Shown here one piece after another: positions 3,398 through 32,946 of a stretch of 41,245 nucleotides of DNA. Position 1 is the first letter of the stretch; each line of letters starts with the position of its first letter. The translations under genes were made by a program, and so were the position numbers. Under the pieces are notes generated by a model. The model made no database searches. It worked only from the letters and a program-made list of their open reading frames with translations, and was not told the origin of the DNA. The stretch is from a virus. The stretch lies in UHGV virus genome UHGV-0086138; one strand, 5' to 3'.

Positions 3398-3550
3398 TCA
3401 GCCCTCCCATATCTCGTTATCGTTGGCCACATCGCGAGCTTCTTTGCTGACGAAAGCCCACTTAATGCCTTCCTGTAAGGTGCGGAACTTCCAGCTCATG
3501 AATCCGCATGCAGTAACGCAGTACCAACCGTTGATGATTTTCCACTGCAT
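3398..3550 (-). CDS. small protein (50 aa), first gene of leftward early operon; not in ORF track
   Basis: ATG at 3550 with GAGGT RBS, translation MQWKIINGWYCVTACGFMSWKFRTLQEGIKWAFVSKEARDVANDNEIWEG, TGA stop; sits directly downstream of a TTGACA promoter and operator. Confidence 0.45.
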   Translation of the reverse strand: MQWKIINGWYCVTACGFMSWKFRTLQEGIKWAFVSKEARDVANDNEIWEG

Positions 3551-5039: not shown

Positions 5040-5903
5040 ATGAGCAGACATGCAACAGATTGGGCCTGGGAGACAGATCCAGGTAGCTCATCATTAAAGC
5101 TCATACTGCTCTCGATGGCTGACAGAGCCGATGAATATAACCTCTGCTACCCCAGCATAGAACGCCTCGTTAAAGACACTTGCCTGAATAAAAAAACCGT
5201 GCAGGCCGGGCTTATATCGCTCATGAAAATGGGGCTTATTTCAGATACCGGAGAGAGAAAGGGAGCGACAAAAAGAGTGCGGGTTTTCTCTCTTAATATA
5301 ACCAAAAACGGGAACATTAAAGGCAACCGAGAGGGGGGCAATGAACCCGAAAACGGTAATGTTACCGAAAACGGGAATATACCCAAAAACGGGATGTTGA
5401 ATGATCCCAAAAACGGGATGTTGAATGATCCCAAAAACGGGATGTTGAATGATCCCAAAAACGGGATGTTGAATGATCCCAAAAACGGGATCCAGAACCA
5501 GTCATATAACCAGTCATTTAACCAAGAGAGGGAGAGCAGGACAAAAAACGGGGATTCTGTGCATCATGACCCCGGCGCAAACAACGCCGTGATGAATAAC
5601 TTTGTTCCTCCTGGTGGGCCAGGGCAATTAGGCAAATTTGTCATGCATGAACAATGGCAGCCATCAGATGACTTTCTTCGGAAAAGCTCATTGCAGGGGA
5701 TCTACCTGGACAGTCTGCCAACGGCACAGGAACTTGCAGAGTTCAGAATTTACTGGATGGCTGAGGGTAAGGCATACCATCAGGCACAGTGGGAGCAGAA
5801 GCTGGCAAGGCGGCTGCAGATTAGCAGACAGAAGCAATCAACATTACCTGATAACAACGTTCCGCACTGGAACAGCCCTGAAGCATGGGAGGATTTCTTG
5901 TGA
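5040..5903 (+). CDS. replication initiator (lambda O-like role) with N-terminal HTH and internal iteron array
   Basis: 287 aa; N-terminal HTH-type domain; 4 perfect 24-bp direct repeats inside gene (encode PKNGMLND x4); followed by P-like gene. Confidence 0.75.
   Translation: MSRHATDWAWETDPGSSSLKLILLSMADRADEYNLCYPSIERLVKDTCLNKKTVQAGLISLMKMGLISDTGERKGATKRVRVFSLNITKNGNIKGNREGGNEPENGNVTENGNIPKNGMLNDPKNGMLNDPKNGMLNDPKNGMLNDPKNGIQNQSYNQSFNQERESRTKNGDSVHHDPGANNAVMNNFVPPGGPGQLGKFVMHEQWQPSDDFLRKSSLQGIYLDSLPTAQELAEFRIYWMAEGKAYHQAQWEQKLARRLQISRQKQSTLPDNNVPHWNSPEAWEDFL
5347..5491 (+). repeat. iteron-like direct repeats inside replication initiator gene (4 perfect 24-bp units CCCAAAAACGGGATGTTGAATGAT at 5382-5477, flanked by degenerate copies)
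   Basis: perfect tandem units read directly; analogous to ori iterons inside lambda O. Confidence 0.7.
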
Positions 5904-6685
5904 ACAACGTTTTTACCGCGATACAAAACCGTGACGGAGAAGCCCTTTCTCGCATGTCAGGTTATGAGCATCAGTACACCAACAATGACAACGTGGTGAA
6001 CATGTCAGCAGAGAGGCTTGTTGATGCCCTTTTCAAACAGCTGAAACAACTGTTTCCGGCGGCAGTGGTAACCAACCTGAAGACGCCAGAGCAGGAAGTC
6101 GCTGCAAAACAGCAGTGGATTGCTGCGTTTGCCGAAGGTGGGATCCGAACCCGTGAACAGGTTTCTGCTGGTATGCGCCACGCCCGCGCCAGTGAATCTC
6201 CGTTCTGGCCGTCGCCAGGGCAATTCATCAAGTGGTGCAAAGACAGCAAGATGGTTCTTGGCGTCACCATTGACGATGTGATGGCGGAGTTTCACCGGTA
6301 CAGCAAGGAAAAAAGTTTATATCCTGGTAGTCCCGAAAGATTCCCGTGGCGACATCCGGTTATGTACTGGGTCGTATGTGATACCCGCCGTGCAATGTAT
6401 CAGCGCCAGCTTAGCGAGATTGAGGTTGAGAAACATGCGCGCAGGCTGCTCGATGATTGGGCGAAAAAGGTGGCTTCTGGACAGCAGATACCCGATCCGG
6501 TGATCAGCATACAGGCAAAGCCAGAGCCCATGAGTACACCTCCGGACACAGGGAGAGACGTTTACCATCCACCAGGGCGAAGTTTCGGATGCATGCCTAA
6601 CGCCGCCACCCTTGGGGGAATAACACCGGCGCAGTGGCTGATGGAGGAATACAGGCGAGGAAAGGCGGCAGGATTTATCAAGTAA
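5900..6685 (+). CDS. replication protein P-like helicase loader
   Basis: Recalled similarity to lambda P (segment ...GMRHARASESPFWPSPGQFIKWCK vs lambda ...GMRVARRQNRPFLPSPGQFVAWCR); start assigned to GTG 5900 after GGAGG RBS, overlapping O stop (GTGA). Confidence 0.8.
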   Translation: MNNVFTAIQNRDGEALSRMSGYEHQYTNNDNVVNMSAERLVDALFKQLKQLFPAAVVTNLKTPEQEVAAKQQWIAAFAEGGIRTREQVSAGMRHARASESPFWPSPGQFIKWCKDSKMVLGVTIDDVMAEFHRYSKEKSLYPGSPERFPWRHPVMYWVVCDTRRAMYQRQLSEIEVEKHARRLLDDWAKKVASGQQIPDPVISIQAKPEPMSTPPDTGRDVYHPPGRSFGCMPNAATLGGITPAQWLMEEYRRGKAAGFIK

Positions 6686-9974: not shown

Positions 9975-10313
9975 ATGGCTAAATCAGCAGCAGAGCGCAA
10001 AGCCGCTCAGAGAGCCAGACAAGCTGAATCCGGTGTACGTAAGCTGGAGATTGTGCTTGATGCTCAGGAAATTGAAATGCTGGAGCGGAACTGCGCCGCC
10101 CGGCGCCCTGGTCGAGATCCCTATGAAATGGCCGAGTACATCGCGCTGATGATCCGCCAGGATGATGCCCGGGTGCGCGGGCGTATAAAATCGATCAGCA
10201 GAAAACGTTGCGGTAAGTGCGGCGAGAGAGTTCCAGTTAATTCATGCCCGTGTAATGGTGACTCGCAATGCTGGGTGACTAAAGGCTGGCATGAAACGAA
10301 ATTAATAGTGTGA
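9975..10313 (+). CDS. hypothetical protein with Cys-rich C-terminus
   Basis: ATG 9975 after AAGGT RBS; stop TGA embedded in 14-bp palindrome. Confidence 0.5.
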   Translation: MAKSAAERKAAQRARQAESGVRKLEIVLDAQEIEMLERNCAARRPGRDPYEMAEYIALMIRQDDARVRGRIKSISRKRCGKCGERVPVNSCPCNGDSQCWVTKGWHETKLIV

Positions 10314-10322
10314 CATGTCACG
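10309..10322. repeat. 14-bp palindrome TGTGACATGTCACG (copy 1)
   Basis: perfect palindrome core GTGACATGTCAC; contains stop codon of 9975..10313; upstream of terS. Confidence 0.8.
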
Positions 10323-12573: not shown

Positions 12574-12587
12574 TGTGACATGTCACG
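12574..12587. repeat. 14-bp palindrome TGTGACATGTCACG (copy 2)
   Basis: identical 14-mer next to bidirectional terminator after terL. Confidence 0.8.
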
Positions 12588-25141: not shown

Positions 25142-26839
25142 ATGCCAATTTACACAGATGATCCGGGACAGGGCATTAACCAGCCAATTGGCAACGCGCC
25201 AGCAGGGCTTGGCGAATCGCTGCTTTCTTCCCTTAAGCAGGGATTTGAAGAGGGGCCGGTCATGTCCGGCTACCGCTTTGCGCAGGCCGACTCGCTGACG
25301 AATGACCCAAACTCTACAGTTATCAGTAAGCAGGACGCAGATGAGCTCCTGAAGCAGTACGGCGTAAAGAGCATAAACGTGCCAGATTCTGGCGTTACGC
25401 AGGCTTTTCTCGATCATGTTATTGCCGAACGCAAAGATTCTCTGGCACGCCAGCAGATTGCGATGTCGGCACCGAGCGGGTGGGTAGCCACGCCGCTTAA
25501 TTTCGCAGCCAGCCTAGCTGGTTCAATGGCAGATCCTGGTAACGTGGCGCTGGCGCTGGTTCCGTTCGCTGGAGAAGCAAAGGCAGCTTCTGTGCTTGGC
25601 CGATTTGGCGAGCGATTTGTTGCTGGTGCACGCATGGGGGCAGCGCAGGCGGTGGTGACCGTGCCGCTTACCGGGCTGGCAGCGGCGGCGGAAGGTGACG
25701 ACTTCACCTATAGCAACGCGTTGGAAAGTACTTTCTTTAACACGATGGCTGGCGGCCTAATGCATGCCGGCGGCGGCCTTATCGCCGATATCGTGCGACC
25801 GCGTCGCGTTCCCGATGCTGCAACGGGAGAGTCCCCGGCGTTTTCTGGCGATGCGCAGCCAACCCCGGTGATAACGCCTGACAACATTCCGGCGGGCGTG
25901 AATATCCCTGAGGTTGGCGCTAACGCAGATCTGGCGGCGGCCATTTCCAGTGAAGCGGAGAGCTACGCATACAGCCGGGCTTATGACGACGTGGTTCCTG
26001 ACTATATGGCGCGCCAGCAGGAGTTACAGAGCGGGCAGATCGGTAACGTAGCCGACCTGCGTGCCGAGCTTGCGGCTAATCAACGTCATGCTGACTCGCT
26101 TGATGCGACGCTGCAGCAGCGCACCAAAAAGTATCAGGGGCAGCGGATGAAGTTTAAGGATGCGCGCTCTAGGGCACTGAAAGAGATTCAGGCCGAGAAA
26201 GACGCCATCGCTGCACGCAATCAGGAGATCAACACATCGCTGGAGCAGAACGCGACAGCAGAGCAGGCGCGCTGGCGCCAGTCTCAGATTTCCCGCGGCG
26301 AGATCCCCGACGACCTGAAAGTCACCATTTCCGAGCGTGCGCAGCAGATCCTGGACGGCATGCAGATGTCGCCGGTCGCTGGCGCAGTTCGCACTGCCGC
26401 AAGCGCCATCAGGGATGCTGACTGGAGCGTGAACCAGCAGGCGTATCGCGCTGCGCTGGCACACATGATGGAAGGACGTAGCCCAGATGTTGAGCCCTTC
26501 TATGAACTGCACAAACCGGCACTGCGTGAACGCGCCATCCATCGCATACAGAATCCGGCACGGCAGGTTGATGAAACGGCTCGCCCAGCAAGCGAAACAG
26601 CCGATCGGGTTTATCAAGAAACGCAAAAGGCAGATCATGAAATTACCGCTGCCGCTGCAGACCTTGATAACGAGCTCAACCTGAGTAACGCCCTGCTTGA
26701 CGATATCGCTGTCGATAACCCTGATCTTGCGACCACGTTGCGCCAGAAACTCAATGATATTCGTGTCGACGCCAGCGACAATAGCATGAGCAACGCTTTC
26801 CGGGCATTTGCCGCCTGTATGATTAACCGGGGGATGTGA
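25142..26839 (+). CDS. internal virion / ejection protein
   Basis: 565 aa; Ala-rich; synteny. Confidence 0.5.
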   Translation: MPIYTDDPGQGINQPIGNAPAGLGESLLSSLKQGFEEGPVMSGYRFAQADSLTNDPNSTVISKQDADELLKQYGVKSINVPDSGVTQAFLDHVIAERKDSLARQQIAMSAPSGWVATPLNFAASLAGSMADPGNVALALVPFAGEAKAASVLGRFGERFVAGARMGAAQAVVTVPLTGLAAAAEGDDFTYSNALESTFFNTMAGGLMHAGGGLIADIVRPRRVPDAATGESPAFSGDAQPTPVITPDNIPAGVNIPEVGANADLAAAISSEAESYAYSRAYDDVVPDYMARQQELQSGQIGNVADLRAELAANQRHADSLDATLQQRTKKYQGQRMKFKDARSRALKEIQAEKDAIAARNQEINTSLEQNATAEQARWRQSQISRGEIPDDLKVTISERAQQILDGMQMSPVAGAVRTAASAIRDADWSVNQQAYRAALAHMMEGRSPDVEPFYELHKPALRERAIHRIQNPARQVDETARPASETADRVYQETQKADHEITAAAADLDNELNLSNALLDDIAVDNPDLATTLRQKLNDIRVDASDNSMSNAFRAFAACMINRGM

Positions 26840-29388
26840 TGGCAGCAAACGAATTTTTGACGCAGTGCGAGCGCAGTGTAAATGCTGCCGCTGGTCGCGA
26901 GCTTTCTTCCGATGAGATGGAGTCGCTGGTGCGTGACATGAACGACACCACTAGGCGAATTCTGGCGACCAATGAGGCGCTGTCTCTGGAAGAGGCCGCG
27001 ATGCGCGCAGCGGAAGAACTGAGCAATACCGATATGCTGGCAAAACAGATTGAGGCTCGCAATAAGGCAATCAACACCCGTATTGCAGCACAACGACTTA
27101 GAGAGCTTCGTACTATCTGGAAAGACCGCCCGGATATCGGGCTTGAAGCAATGCTGGTTGGCCGCAACGATGCGCGTACCGGCGCCCGCCGGTCGGTATC
27201 TTCGGAGGTGGCGCAACTGCGCGGCAAGTATCATTCCGGTATCAACTACGATTTTGACCGTGCCGGGCTAGTGCAATTCATCGCCAGCGGCAGCAATGAC
27301 AGGGAAATTGCCGATGCAATGTGGCGCATAGGGCGCGGGCAGTCAACTGACGGTATGACAAAGCAATCCGTAAGCGCTGCACAAATCATCATGAAATGGC
27401 AGGAAACTGCGCGCATTGATGAGAACCGCGCCGGGGCATGGATACGCAAAGAGCCGGGCTATATAGTGCGCCAGTCACACGATATCATGAAGATCCGCGC
27501 CGCAGGTTATGAAGCATGGCGAAATGCTATTCTCCCGCGCCTTGATGAGCGCACTTTTGACGGCGTGGCTGACCGCGAGCAGTTCATGCATAACATTTAT
27601 AACGGGCTGGCTTCCGGCGTGCATCTTACATCTGAAAAGCCAGATTGGATGAATGGCTTTAAGGGATCGGCGAACGCAGCTAAACGCGCCAGCCAAGAGC
27701 GAATTTTGCACTTCAAAGATGGTATCTCGTGGCACGAGTACAACCAGCAATTCGGCACCGGCAGCCTGCGAGAGGCGCTGTTTGGTGGCTTAAACAGCGC
27801 TGCCCGCACAACGGGCATGATGCGCGTACTGGGCACTAACCCACAGAACATGTTTAAGTACCTGACGGACACCATTGCTGAAGATATCAGCAAATCCGGA
27901 AGACCGGCAGCGTTAGCTGACTACATGACGAAGGTGCGTCGCATTAACCGTACCGTAATGCCGCAGGTTGACGGCTCGCTAAATATTCCTGGCAGCGTAG
28001 GCTGGGCCAATGCGTCGGCGGCTGTACGCGGCTGGTTGCGTATGAGCCAGCTTGGTGGCGCGGTAATCTCATCGTTTAACGACGTGCCTATCGCCGCTAC
28101 CGAGATGCGCTACCAAGGGCAGAATTTTATGCAGGCGTTGCTTGGTGCTATGAGAGGCCGCTTCACGCGTTACAACAGCGCGGAGCAGAAAGAGATCCTT
28201 TCCTCTATCGGAGTTTATTCCGACTCCATGACGCAGGAAATCATCCGGCGCATATCTGGTGATGACACGCTGAATGGAAAACTTGGTCGCGCGCAGCAGC
28301 TTTTCTTTAAGTACAACCTCATGAACTTCTGGACCGAGAGCGGTCGTAACAGCAACGCCATGATGATAACCAACTGGCTTGCAAAGAATGCTGACCAGTC
28401 TCATGCGCGGCTACCGGAAGACCTGCGACGCGTGCTGGATCTGCACGGTATTGGCGAACGTGAGTGGGAAATTTTTCGCAACATGGACATGGCCGATAGC
28501 GAAGGTCGTAAGTTCATGACGACCAGCGGCATGCGCGGCGTGCCTGACGAAGTGATTGCCGGTTATGTAGAGAGTAAGGGGATCAAACCAACGCAGCGCG
28601 CTATCGCTGACGCACGCGATCAATTGGAAGGGCAGTTGCGCGGCTACATCCTTGACCGCCTGAATATCGCCATGTCAGAGCCTGGCGATCGCACGCAGGC
28701 GTTTATGAAGATGGGCACGGTGCCAGGAACGGTGGCTGGGGAAGCAATACGATTCGCTGGTCAGTACAAATCGTTCACTGCAAGCTTCATGCAGAACGTA
28801 CTAGGACGCGAAGTATTCGGGCGTGGTTATATTCCTGCTGGGCTTGGTGAGTCGAAAACCGGATCGCTGACGAATGCGCTGCTACGTAACGGGAAGGGGG
28901 CTTTCCTTGGTGCTGCAAACCTCTTTGTCTGGGCGACTATGTTTGGTTATATCTCCATGCAGTCAAAACTCATGCTGAAAGGGCAAACACCACGCCCGGC
29001 AGATGCCAAGACGTTTCTCGCAGCCGCATCTCAGGGGGGCGGTCTTGGCATCTTGGGTGACTTCATGTTTGGCGAGGTCAACCGCATGGGGGCCGGGCCG
29101 GTTACGTCGCTAATGGGACCGGCTGCATCGAACGCTGACAGCATTATCACGCTGCTCCAGCAGACCACGAGGGGGGATGCAGATTTGGGTGACTGGTATC
29201 GCACGGCACTTGACAATACGCCATTCCTCAACGTGTTCTGGCTTCGTACGGCGATGAATGGTTTAATATTGAACCGGATACAAGATGCCCTTGACCCAGG
29301 CTCTCTTGAGCGTTATCAGCGCCGTGTTGAGCGTGAACAGGGTAACGACTTTCTGATCCCACCATCGCAGTTCATGCTAGGGAAGTAA
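26836..29388 (+). CDS. internal virion / DNA-ejection protein
   Basis: 850 aa; synteny with large podovirus ejection proteins. Confidence 0.5.
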   Translation: MMAANEFLTQCERSVNAAAGRELSSDEMESLVRDMNDTTRRILATNEALSLEEAAMRAAEELSNTDMLAKQIEARNKAINTRIAAQRLRELRTIWKDRPDIGLEAMLVGRNDARTGARRSVSSEVAQLRGKYHSGINYDFDRAGLVQFIASGSNDREIADAMWRIGRGQSTDGMTKQSVSAAQIIMKWQETARIDENRAGAWIRKEPGYIVRQSHDIMKIRAAGYEAWRNAILPRLDERTFDGVADREQFMHNIYNGLASGVHLTSEKPDWMNGFKGSANAAKRASQERILHFKDGISWHEYNQQFGTGSLREALFGGLNSAARTTGMMRVLGTNPQNMFKYLTDTIAEDISKSGRPAALADYMTKVRRINRTVMPQVDGSLNIPGSVGWANASAAVRGWLRMSQLGGAVISSFNDVPIAATEMRYQGQNFMQALLGAMRGRFTRYNSAEQKEILSSIGVYSDSMTQEIIRRISGDDTLNGKLGRAQQLFFKYNLMNFWTESGRNSNAMMITNWLAKNADQSHARLPEDLRRVLDLHGIGEREWEIFRNMDMADSEGRKFMTTSGMRGVPDEVIAGYVESKGIKPTQRAIADARDQLEGQLRGYILDRLNIAMSEPGDRTQAFMKMGTVPGTVAGEAIRFAGQYKSFTASFMQNVLGREVFGRGYIPAGLGESKTGSLTNALLRNGKGAFLGAANLFVWATMFGYISMQSKLMLKGQTPRPADAKTFLAAASQGGGLGILGDFMFGEVNRMGAGPVTSLMGPAASNADSIITLLQQTTRGDADLGDWYRTALDNTPFLNVFWLRTAMNGLILNRIQDALDPGSLERYQRRVEREQGNDFLIPPSQFMLGK

Positions 29389-29389
29389 T

Positions 29390-29761
29390 ATGAACAGAAT
29401 TATATTAATGATTATTCTTATGCTTTTAGTTGTAAAATCTTTTGCAGATACTACCTCACCGTTAATGATTCAGCCTAAAAATGGGGAAACACTGGAGGAT
29501 TCTAAAAAGCATACAATGGAATATTTTGGATGTATAAAAGGGCAGGTCGTAAAATACGCTAAGACAGGAGAAAGTGTTGATTCTATATCCAAAGCTTCGG
29601 TTGTGTCATGCGAGTCGTACATACAAAAGATTGCTGAATCAAATATATACTATTTAAATTCCTCTCAAGACGGTAAGCGGAAATTTATTGGAAGGCTTAA
29701 ATCAGATGGTGAAAATTTAGCAACGAAATTTGCTATGGATGAAAAGCTAAAAAATAAATAG
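29390..29761 (+). CDS. secreted protein with signal peptide (accessory gene)
   Basis: N-terminal hydrophobic signal (MNRIILMIILMLLVVKSFA); strongly AT-rich codon usage; GGGAAG RBS. Confidence 0.5.
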   Translation: MNRIILMIILMLLVVKSFADTTSPLMIQPKNGETLEDSKKHTMEYFGCIKGQVVKYAKTGESVDSISKASVVSCESYIQKIAESNIYYLNSSQDGKRKFIGRLKSDGENLATKFAMDEKLKNK

Positions 29762-29769
29762 GTGACTAC

Positions 29770-30066
29770 ATGCAAGCGATAGGATTCATTGTTTATATCG
29801 TCGTTGGTCTTTTTCAGTTGGCAGCAATTATGGCTGGGCTTGAATCATGGTGGGGATTGCACTGGATAATTGCAGCCCCCATTGCTTTCATCGTGAGCTA
29901 TATTCCATTTGTTGGAGCGATTGTTGGTATGGTTGGCGCTGTGGATGTATGGCGGTGGGAGTGGTGGCAGGCTGGCCTTCTCTTCTTTGGTGGGATCATC
30001 TTTGCTATTGTCTGCGGTGGAATGTCATCATTTTTCGAATGGCTATCATTCAGAAAAGGAACGTGA
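29770..30066 (+). CDS. small integral membrane protein (3 predicted TM helices)
   Basis: 98 aa, W- and G-rich hydrophobic segments; AGGTGA RBS; stop within 14-bp palindrome and followed by terminator. Confidence 0.5.
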   Translation: MQAIGFIVYIVVGLFQLAAIMAGLESWWGLHWIIAAPIAFIVSYIPFVGAIVGMVGAVDVWRWEWWQAGLLFFGGIIFAIVCGGMSSFFEWLSFRKGT

Positions 30067-30075
30067 CATGTCACA
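30062..30075. repeat. 14-bp palindrome CGTGACATGTCACA (copy 3, reverse-complement orientation)
   Basis: contains stop codon of 29770..30066, adjacent to terminator hairpin. Confidence 0.8.
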
Positions 30076-30100
30076 GGCCGCTTTCGCGGCCTTGTTTTTA
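30075..30100 (+). terminator. rho-independent terminator after accessory genes 29390..30066
   Basis: hairpin AGGCCGC-TTTC-GCGGCCT followed by TGTTTTT. Confidence 0.65.
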
Positions 30101-30259
30101 ACGAATGCCACCGCCGCCCGGGCGGGAATCCGCAGAACGCCCACCGCAGCGGGAGCCGTCAGCGGCAGTATCGCTGTCGTGCTGACAACGACCGGCAAAG
30201 GCCTGAGTTGAAGCTACCAGAGACAACAAAACGAACAGTGCAGCAAATGCTTTTTTCAT
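30098..30259 (-). CDS. small secreted peptide candidate
   Basis: 53 aa from ATG 30259: signal-like MKKAFAALFVLLSLVASTQAFA then Gly/Arg-rich tail; weak RBS. Confidence 0.3.
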   Translation of the reverse strand: MKKAFAALFVLLSLVASTQAFAGRCQHDSDTAADGSRCGGRSADSRPGGGGIR

Positions 30260-30352
30260 TGTGACATTTCCATCTATAAGCCACCTCAATGTGGCGTCAA
30301 TGAGTGTAGCACTGACTTTTGTTTCGTCCACAAAAAAGCCCTCGCCGCGGGC

Positions 30353-30877
30353 TTACCAAAACTTGTACCACGGGGATTTATCCTTCAATGGACAATCCTT
30401 CCATCGTGTGGCTAACCATTCATATTCTTTAAAATATGTGTTTATGTTTTCTTTTTCTCTAATAGCTTGTATAAGAGGTAGCGCAATCTGATAGTTATTT
30501 ACAACGGAGCTGTAAAATACTTCCTTAATCATGGTCTCATCATAAGTTTTCCGCTTCACGCTCACAGCCATGCGTTCGTAGAAACCTAGACAGTAAATTA
30601 TTTCTCTCTTCTCTATCTTTTCTTCATCCGTAAGATCAGCCTGCCCATTGCTTGGATACATATAAGAGCGGAATGATTTGTTCGACTCGTGAATGCGGCG
30701 CATAGTAGATAGGCCTTTCTTATAATCTACATCAAACCTGCTTTCACCAAGGAATACTGAAGTGTGTACTTTTCTCGCTGTATTTACATTATAAATAATA
30801 GTAGCGATAGCTATGAACAAGCCAAGCGAAACCGCGACTGCACTTACGATTTGAGCCACAGCCATGGCAAATTGCAT
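30353..30877 (-). CDS. membrane-anchored protein of unknown function (AT-rich accessory gene)
   Basis: N-terminal TM helix then about 140-aa soluble domain; start ambiguous between ATG 30877 and GTG 30892. Confidence 0.5.
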   Translation of the reverse strand: MQFAMAVAQIVSAVAVSLGLFIAIATIIYNVNTARKVHTSVFLGESRFDVDYKKGLSTMRRIHESNKSFRSYMYPSNGQADLTDEEKIEKREIIYCLGFYERMAVSVKRKTYDETMIKEVFYSSVVNNYQIALPLIQAIREKENINTYFKEYEWLATRWKDCPLKDKSPWYKFW

Positions 30878-30910
30878 TTCTTCACTTAACACAAACTGTC
30901 TCCAGACATG

Positions 30911-32217: not shown

Positions 32218-32946
32218 ATGGAAGTTTTCTGGATAGTTGTTGGTGTGGTTGCGGTGATTATTTATGTTATCAACCAGAACAAGACTAAGATCTCTGATCG
32301 TACGGTCGTTAATCATAACAAAACGATAAAGACCGAAGATGGGGAGATAACGATTAATCGTACACAGGTGATAGAACACACCTCTACTCAGTTTCAAAAA
32401 ACTGGAGGTAATGCGCCTAATATTTCCGCACCTCCTGCTTATGATAGTGCGGTAATCCAGACATATTATAAACAGCAGGAGTTAGCAAAAGAGAGGCAAC
32501 TGATTCAGCCAAAGCCGTTTACAGCTGAGCTTCCACCTGGAGTGTCAACGCGTCCGGCATATCATGGAAGATTCCCTGGTGATGACATATCGTCTCAGTC
32601 ATCTAAAAAAGCACCTCAGGCAGTATCAGAGCCAGCAAGAATACCTTCTGTATCGCCGCCAAAAGAAGAATCAGCTAACAGAGTTTCAAGTGGTAGCAAG
32701 CAGTGCTTGCGATGCAGAATAAACCTACCATATGAAAAATTCAGGAAATCGTCAAAAAATCCAGATGGATTGACTAAGTGGTGTGCAAGGTGTCTCGATG
32801 GCCCAAAGAATACACGCCATATGAAGTGGTGCCCAATTTGTAATGTCCGCAGAAAACGAACCAGCTTTTACCCTAATAATCAAAATGCGGACGGATTAAT
32901 GGCATGGTGCAAAACGTGCTGGGATGAGCACAAAGCGAAACGATAG
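32218..32946 (+). CDS. membrane-anchored protein with duplicated C-terminal CxxC zinc-ribbon-like motifs
   Basis: N-terminal TM helix; two repeats of C-x2-C ... DGL-x-(K/A)WC-x(2)-C; GAGGA RBS. Confidence 0.5.
   Translation: MEVFWIVVGVVAVIIYVINQNKTKISDRTVVNHNKTIKTEDGEITINRTQVIEHTSTQFQKTGGNAPNISAPPAYDSAVIQTYYKQQELAKERQLIQPKPFTAELPPGVSTRPAYHGRFPGDDISSQSSKKAPQAVSEPARIPSVSPPKEESANRVSSGSKQCLRCRINLPYEKFRKSSKNPDGLTKWCARCLDGPKNTRHMKWCPICNVRRKRTSFYPNNQNADGLMAWCKTCWDEHKAKR

Follow-up and report, generated by a model that had tools for sequence, protein, structure and literature searches.

Prophage accessory genes that act in the cell envelope determine the range of phages and competitors able to attack a lysogen, and few of the mechanisms are understood (SieA, Imm, Spackle, Cor, and Llp). 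The present analysis concerns three small genes at positions 29390 to 30259 of the virus genome UHGV-0086138, a stretch of 41,245 nucleotides (nt) referred to below as the window. Open reading frame (ORF) 1 (29390..29761, + strand, 123 residues) and ORF2 (29770..30066, + strand, 98 residues) follow the gene of the last large internal virion protein, and ORF3 (30098..30259, - strand, 53 residues) is convergent to them. The gene set represents a familiar type of biology, prophage accessory cassettes for envelope proteins; the ORF1 family is unannotated.

Several described proteins are comparable. T4 Imm and HK97 gp15 are small phage proteins with multiple transmembrane (TM) segments that act at the inner membrane; gp15 was reportedly described by Cumby et al. 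in 2012 as a moron within the late structural operon. With the lambdoid morons (lambda bor and lom; Juhala/Hendrix definition) the locus shares variability between conserved flanks, a downstream terminator, envelope products and, for ORF1 only, an atypical composition. Unlike these morons, ORF1 and ORF2 have no identifiable promoter of their own and appear to be translationally coupled to an essential upstream gene.

The gene of the superinfection exclusion protein SieA of phage P22 lies past the last ejection-protein gene and ahead of the antirepressor/tailspike region (PMC10883804) and is accessory in relatives; ORF2, likewise small and predicted to span the inner membrane with three TM helices, resembles this protein. 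However, SieA has about 162 residues and a cytoplasmic motif, FxRYPxEAxxFNK (PMC10883804), whereas ORF2 has 98 residues and the motif is absent from all three products. The sieA gene lies on the opposite strand with its own annotated promoter, while ORF1 and ORF2 run in the direction of the late genes, and only ORF3 and a neighboring DUF4760 gene share the sieA orientation. Moreover, P22 is a Lederbergvirus, and the phage described here is a Uetakevirus. The initial annotation had compared the position of the genes with the sieA slot of P22-like phages. A variable accessory slot between the last ejection gene and the antirepressor/tailspike genes, holding envelope proteins, is indeed present; the sieA type is not, as profile similarity (hhalign probability of 0.4% between SieA and the ORF2 family), size, motif, strand, and promoter all differ.

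For ORF1, the closest parallels are periplasmic. T4 Spackle (gp61.3) is a periplasmic inhibitor of the tail lysozyme gp5 with a cleaved localization signal, a small alpha-helical bundle, and one disulfide (PMC7677548). ORF1 has all these features by prediction, and in both cases the phage virion delivers a murein hydrolase to the periplasm. Spackle is, however, the product of an early gene of a virulent myovirus and targets a T4-type lysozyme, whereas ORF1 is the last-but-one cistron of the late operon of a temperate podovirus and its candidate target would be an SLT transglycosylase domain. The Rap1a proteins confer periplasmic immunity against peptidoglycan endopeptidases of type VI secretion systems (T6SS) (PMC3533786, PMC3852654); like ORF1 by prediction, Rap1a and Tai4 are periplasmic, Sec-exported, small helical, and disulfide-dependent binders (PMC3852654, PMC3533786). 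ORF1 is nevertheless not a member of the family, and no T6SS effector partner is known for it.

A cassette slot behind the internal virion genes

The host phage is an epsilon15/phiV10-like Escherichia coli prophage of the genus Uetakevirus, with phiV10, TL-2011b, phiv142-3, HEMP4, ZX5, and PAS61 as its relatives; it is not P22-like. The left anchor of the region is the gene of an 850-residue protein (26836..29388, + strand; phrog_684 'virion structural protein', E 1.6e-270), a homolog of phiV10 gp20 and epsilon15 gp17. It is preceded in the same operon by the genes of an 873-residue protein with an SLT domain and of a 568-residue protein. These three products we take to be internal core proteins, thought to be ejected to build the epsilon15 periplasmic conduit. 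ORF1 starts 2 nt past the stop codon of the 850-residue protein gene, in agreement with the position first reported for it, right after the last internal virion gene.

At its 3' end, the operon of the internal virion proteins has a cassette slot, in which ORF1 and ORF2 are two independent cassettes and ORF3 is a third, separately transcribed one past the terminator. The evidence comes from about 100 loci encoding relatives of the 850-residue protein or of ORF1-3, 84 of which have a closely related virion gene. The last 162 codons of this gene are 85-100% identical in the 84 loci, whose downstream gene differs, and in nearly all of them the next co-oriented ORF begins 1-4 nt past its stop codon. 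At least 10 unrelated families occupy the slot, every one of them with a signal peptide, lipobox, or TM segments. Apart from the ORF1 and ORF2 families, these are signal-peptide proteins of 186 residues (phrog_11983) and of 118-127 residues, lipoproteins of 160 and 136 residues, 2-TM proteins of 64-68 residues, a 51-residue TM protein, a 108-residue 3-TM protein, and 110-residue TM proteins. Further occupants are phiV10 gp21 (46 residues, 2 TM) and an unannotated 57-residue 2-TM ORF in a common E. coli arrangement exemplified by strain BE311. Both share the position of the genes of the window, with the last virion gene directly on their left and the same palindrome and terminator (see below) on their right; they are unrelated in sequence to ORF1 and ORF2 (hhalign 0.65% for gp21 against the ORF2 family) and equally uncharacterized.

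Cassette similarity does not track the similarity of the adjoining virion gene. In locus L094, a virion gene 94% identical over the last 162 codons is followed by an ORF1-like gene of only 31% identity; over the same codons, the virion gene is 28% identical in L092 and 92% identical in L005, and their ORF2 homologs are 100% and 61% identical, respectively. The slot holds ORF1 without ORF2 in prophages of Klebsiella and Phytobacter, and ORF2 without ORF1 in those of Cronobacter and Yersinia, in some of Salmonella, and in most of E. coli; both genes are found in the window and in other Salmonella and E. coli prophages. ORF1 and ORF2 are present or absent between conserved flanks in related phages, as morons are. 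Some part of the region is found in 541 of the 5426 complete E. coli genomes, with ORF2 and/or ORF3 being common, while ORF1 is found in seven.

The right boundary of the slot is a perfect 12-bp palindrome, GTGACATGTCAC (30063..30074), which overlaps the TGA stop codon of ORF2 and is conserved at this position in phiV10, BE311, TL-2011b, and BUCT711 regardless of the slot gene. It is followed at 30075..30092, between the convergent ORF2 and ORF3, by an intrinsic terminator with a G+C-rich hairpin (7 pairs, 6 of them GC, in the terminator scan) and a T-run (tail TGTTTTTAAC); this element is invariant in five phages and annotated as a terminator at the homologous phiV10 position. Recombination may swap the small genes between these fixed anchors, i.e., the virion-gene stop codon on the left and the palindrome with the terminator on the right. 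No paper on this slot was found, and its regularity may be previously undescribed.

Two of the alternative occupants deserve a separate mention. The 57-residue ORF of the E. coli BE311 prophage (L092, 3330..3503), with a like arrangement in many E. coli genomes, has a GTG start codon and two hydrophobic stretches. It takes up the 195-nt 'gap' that separates ORF2 from the phiV10-type virion gene, contains a terminator-like hairpin (3473..3489) within its 3' end, and ends just before the AAATAGGTGACTACATG junction that precedes ORF2 in the window as well. The 118-residue protein of loci L023, L070, and L073 is a genuine member of the Rap1a family (PF18602, 48.1 bits against a cutoff of 27.7). 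Rap1a-type signal-peptide proteins of 118-127 residues (phrog_3870, 'unknown function') occur in these loci and in L024 and L025 (Leclercia, Klebsiella, and some IMG/VR prophages), starting at about locus position 5389. As the gene lies directly after the virion gene, a T6SS immunity homolog is carried there as the last cistron of a phage late operon.

The three gene products

The three ORFs are predicted at the same coordinates and on the same strands as in the initial annotation, and RefSeq calls the same genes at the same coordinates in the prophage of E. coli SW070919, which is 100% identical over 29300..30400. They are real genes because they are under purifying selection, the ratio of nonsynonymous to synonymous substitution rates (dN/dS) against diverged homologs being 0.08-0.15 for ORF1, 0.02-0.07 for ORF2, and 0.04-0.12 for ORF3 (0.02-0.15 overall). 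Hydropathy bears out the proposed product types, namely a signal-peptide protein, a 3-TM membrane protein, and a small secreted peptide. The description of the cluster as AT-rich and compositionally distinct throughout applies to ORF1 (G+C content of 0.328, compared with 0.548 in the 850-residue virion protein gene and 0.488 in the whole window), but not to ORF2 (0.465, close to the window mean) or ORF3 (0.580, above the virion gene).

The N-terminus of ORF1 is a canonical Sec signal by hydropathy (MNR, a hydrophobic core, and SFA before the D at the predicted processing site). In the family alignment, which extends down to 22% identity, M1, C48, and C74 are the sole invariant residues. The invariance of the two cysteines suggests a C48-C74 disulfide and hence an oxidizing compartment; the product is probably periplasmic. 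The AlphaFold2 model computed with the family alignment (predicted local distance difference test, pLDDT, of 87) is all alpha after the signal helix, with helices at 35-57, 63-73, 76-83, 86-89, and 93-121.

ORF1 is the founding member of a small unannotated family. It has no significant PHROG match, the family is absent from Pfam and NCBIfam, neither ORF1 nor any of 20 family members matches a Pfam model, and tblastn against 50,697 phage records gave no match (0). An exhaustive profile search of 1.84 billion representatives yielded about 15 genuine family clusters. The three distant members that could be placed in context (42%, 31%, and 34% identity) all come immediately behind the gene of the last large internal virion protein in epsilon15-like prophages, and the family therefore appears to be slot-specific rather than a wandering gene; the 160-residue slot lipoprotein is a further distant relative (hhalign 88.8%). 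One exception to the slot was seen in a Sodalis sp. contig (JBPESW010000158.1; L004), in which a homolog of 60% identity (6001..6369) directly follows a Rep3-family replication initiator gene. This contig, which also encodes RecT and a DUF3799 protein and ends just past the homolog, may be a plasmid or a phage-plasmid.

ORF2 matches phrog_3075, a functionally uncharacterized family, over its full length (E 1.6e-54); its 52 homologs are restricted to Enterobacterales. Hydropathy shows three hydrophobic stretches (residues 1-25, 28-61, and 66-90), joined by Trp-rich loops (ESWWGLHW and WRWEWWQ) and followed by a C-terminal tail of 10 residues. The AlphaFold2 model with the family alignment (pLDDT 91) has TM1 spanning 2-28, a kink in TM2 (32-42/46-59), and TM3 together with the tail at 65-97. 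Since the C-terminus is basic throughout the family, the positive-inside rule suggests an N-out/C-in topology in the inner membrane, in which the WxWEWWQ loop would be periplasmic.

ORF3 matches phrog_14503/3117 over its full length (E 2.3e-40). The database labels are 'membrane associated protein' (PHROG 14503) and 'transmembrane anchored protein' (NCBI), and both PHROGs are functionally uncharacterized. Hydropathy divides the product into a signal (MKK..., with AFA before G) and a 31-residue mature peptide with two cysteines. Among 18 aligned homologs, the signal peptide is variable, whereas the mature peptide, C-x12-C...DGSRCGGRSADSRPGG, is nearly invariant. A 77-residue version with a GTG start codon is unlikely, as this GTG is part of the preceding terminator's T-run, and the Klebsiella homologs do not conserve the upstream frame. 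The gene travels as a module with about 95 nt of upstream sequence and the downstream terminator; the module is found after many different slot occupants, independently of ORF1 and ORF2, and also in an unrelated, non-Uetakevirus Pectobacterium prophage, between tail genes and a MuF_C gene. A TTGACG-16-TATAGA element lies upstream of ORF3 and is not conserved in the Klebsiella homologs. Phage phiv142-3 has copies of ORF2 and ORF3 of 100% identity, named Orf12 and Orf11; there, the gene of a 52-residue protein, Orf10 (MN187550.1, 6498..6656), lies immediately upstream of the ORF3 homolog in the same variable region.

None of the three proteins has a recognizable domain, as had been noted from the outset: no Pfam, NCBIfam, or PADLOC model is matched at threshold, and PADLOC-DB 2.0 gives no match at E <= 0.1 for ORF1-3, the DUF4760 protein, or a 242-residue neighbor. 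The match of ORF2 to Phage_holin_5_2 (PF16079) reaches 15.2 bits, below the cutoff of 29.2 (E 0.027). Pairwise profile comparisons were equally negative for T4 Imm against the ORF2 family (hhalign 0.7%) and, against the ORF1 family, for T4 Spackle (0.7%) and the Rap1a-like proteins of the slot (0.15%). Profile searches against PDB sequences returned noise only, and fold searches returned nothing specific. The remote homology and structure predictions proposed initially thus connect the genes to no known family, but they do provide confident helical models of ORF1 and ORF2.

Transcription signals and neighboring genes

The ATG of ORF1 lies 2 nt past the TAA of the 850-residue virion protein gene, where an upstream GGGAAG can act as a Shine-Dalgarno sequence, and ORF2 begins 8 nt past the ORF1 stop codon, with the Shine-Dalgarno sequence AGGTGA 5 nt upstream. 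No sigma-70-like promoter scoring >= 9/12 was found on the + strand from 29000 to ORF2, nor any run of conserved synonymous sites within the last 80 codons of the virion gene among 57 distinct sequences. On the simplest reading, ORF1 and ORF2 would close the late operon as its last cistrons, in translational coupling with the virion gene and ending at the conserved terminator.

The palindrome at the right boundary occurs in three exact copies in the window (10310..10321, 12575..12586, and 30063..30074), compared with 0.00 expected by chance, each at a transcription-unit boundary. The first copy overlaps the TGA of a 113-residue Cys-rich regulator-like ORF just before the terminase genes, and the second comes after the hairpin that follows the large-terminase gene. 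In phiV10, exact copies are found at the two equivalent internal positions despite the unrelated slot gene; the third would fall at the ends of the linear record. The palindrome could be a site for a regulator or antiterminator, an RNA hairpin, or a recombination anchor.

To the right of ORF3 follow genes for a DUF4760 protein (-), a Bro-N antirepressor-like protein (-), a 242-residue Cys-rich protein (+), an epsilon15 gp19-like protein (-), and the tailspike. The layout is analogous to 16-sieA-mnt-arc-ant-9 of P22, and TL-2011b carries Arc and Ant in this region, paralleling the P22 immI; the resemblance is one of position, not of homology. The DUF4760 gene (30353..30892, - strand; PF15956, E 1.6e-30) encodes 179 residues with an N-terminal TM segment. 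It is variably present among otherwise similar loci, lies on the strand opposite to the late genes, and ends in its own terminator (30336..30354, - strand, from the terminator scan), which bounds the ORF3 module on its left; in TL-2011b, ORF3 is preceded by the same hairpin, and the gene upstream is that of a YafO toxin. In position and orientation, the DUF4760 gene is the closest analog of P22 sieA in the window, within the same variable region as ORF1-3. Its product shows no similarity to SieA (BLASTP E 43), and no literature on the function of DUF4760 was found.

The 242-residue protein (phrog_6762; 32218..32946, + strand), encoded between the Bro-N gene and the tailspike region, has an N-terminal TM-like segment and two C-terminal CxxC...CxxC modules, with weak matches to the Stc1 domain and to endonuclease VII, HNH, and Lar-like PHROGs. 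The tailspike gene (33422..36496, + strand, 1024 residues) is intact in the window, while in the otherwise near-identical SW070919 prophage (NZ_CM129861.1, 1451151..1455538) it is split by an IS3-family element. The window therefore represents a different copy of the prophage, possibly one that is still functional.

Possible functions of the cassettes

Superinfection exclusion, as proposed in the initial annotation, is a reasonable hypothesis for these genes. In a somewhat broader form, it is the explanation that we tentatively favor, while not regarding it as established: ORF1-3 may protect the infected or lysogenic cell, at the level of the envelope, from incoming attack. ORF1 would be a Sec-exported, disulfide-locked helical protein that binds and neutralizes a protein with which an incoming phage acts in the periplasm (the SLT murein-hydrolase ejection protein of related podophages is the most plausible target), as Spackle acts on gp5 and Rap1a on T6SS amidases. 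ORF2 would be a 3-TM obstacle to the ejection conduit in the inner membrane, comparable to SieA and Imm, and ORF3 a secreted or anchored peptide of about 30 residues with one disulfide loop.

Several observations point in this direction. The slot occupants are all exported or membrane proteins, far from a random protein sample, which suggests selection for action in the envelope. The almost exclusive presence of the ORF1 family in the slot is easier to reconcile with a phage-specific target than with a general bacterial one, and the occurrence of ORF1 and ORF2 singly or jointly, decoupled from the flank, is expected of accessory genes. The Rap1a immunity protein among the occupants, the predicted architecture that ORF1 has in common with Spackle and Rap1a/Tai4, the SLT-domain ejection protein encoded in the same operon, and the sieA-like position lend further support. 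On the other hand, the placement in the late operon, with no promoter of the genes' own, weakens a classical prophage-expressed exclusion role, unlike the situation of P22 sieA. Protection from lysis-from-without was the original phenotype of Spackle, and late expression of ORF1 would fit such a role. A more far-reaching version, in which the slot is a dedicated hotspot for protective cassettes of the periplasm and inner membrane, the ORF1 family a new class of disulfide-locked periplasmic inhibitors of the SLT ejection protein of incoming podophages, evolved independently as a Spackle analog in temperate phages, and ORF2 a new conduit blocker, is rather unlikely to hold as a whole.

Given the Rap1a-family occupant, anti-bacterial immunity is as legitimate a reading as superinfection exclusion. 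The cassettes would then be orphan immunity genes against T6SS effectors or bacteriocins of competitors, with ORF1 as a new immunity family and ORF2 and ORF3 as membrane-level factors. Small multi-TM proteins are typical immunity proteins against pore-forming toxins, Leclercia and Klebsiella prophages have a true Rap1a-family protein at this very position, and the predicted design of ORF1 (small, helical, disulfide-bonded, and Sec-exported) is that of Rap1a/Tai4 (PMC3852654). However, the profile comparison and the Pfam searches above show ORF1 to be unrelated to Rap1a, its distant members with a readable context all lie in the phage slot with none beside an effector gene, and no promoter for expression in the lysogen was found; as a full account, this has only a modest chance of being right. 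The tight late-operon coupling (gaps of 2 and 8 nt, a Shine-Dalgarno sequence before ORF2, the shared terminator, and a conserved 1-4 nt junction) would suit a role in the lytic cycle, either in lysis timing, with ORF2 resembling a holin or antiholin and ORF1 a periplasmic regulator like T4 RI, or in conditioning the envelope before release. The size and 3-TM layout of ORF2 are like those of a class I holin, and the holin profile is weakly matched, but well below threshold. Moreover, these phages already have a full lysis cassette after the tailspike (two holin-family genes, an endolysin, and spanins), and ORF1 and ORF2 are each dispensable in close relatives, where unrelated proteins replace them, which does not suit a core lysis role; such a function, too, has only a modest chance of being right.

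Host-fitness or virulence morons that take no part in phage or bacterial conflict, acting by lysogenic conversion (e.g., serum resistance or a surface change like that by lambda Bor and Lom), would suit ORF3 best, which has a terminator on either side, as a classical moron does, and is exchanged among phages of unrelated types. The only experimental paper that bears on the region concerns phiv142-3: the prophage enhances serum survival, transcripts of its orf10 are present in the lysogen and rise strongly in chicken serum, and this gene contributes to colonization and lowers serum resistance when deleted (PMC7724020); the induction of orf10 indicates that the leftward side of the variable region is transcribed in lysogens. 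The serum phenotype is nonetheless that of orf10, which is absent from the window, whereas orf11 (ORF3) and orf12 (ORF2) are not among the serum-induced genes (PMC7724020). In addition, lysogeny by ZX5 has no detectable host phenotype (PMC9782041), and the Klebsiella homologs do not retain the promoter-like hexamers that lie upstream of ORF3, which leaves this explanation quite improbable for the set. The sharing of operon and strand with the internal virion proteins could suggest that the products are structural or assembly proteins. This is very improbable, since the cleavable Sec signal of ORF1 and the three TM helices of ORF2 are incompatible with a capsid assembled in the cytoplasm, and close relatives whose virion genes are near-identical lack the genes or have others in their place.

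Whichever function the individual cassettes have, the slot brings together at least 10 unrelated small envelope proteins at one defined junction beside the ejection-protein genes, as a compact natural library. If no cassette blocks genome delivery, the region is an ordinary moron patch. If some of them do, they would provide handles on the poorly understood epsilon15-like periplasmic conduit and would have a bearing on the host range of therapeutic phages.

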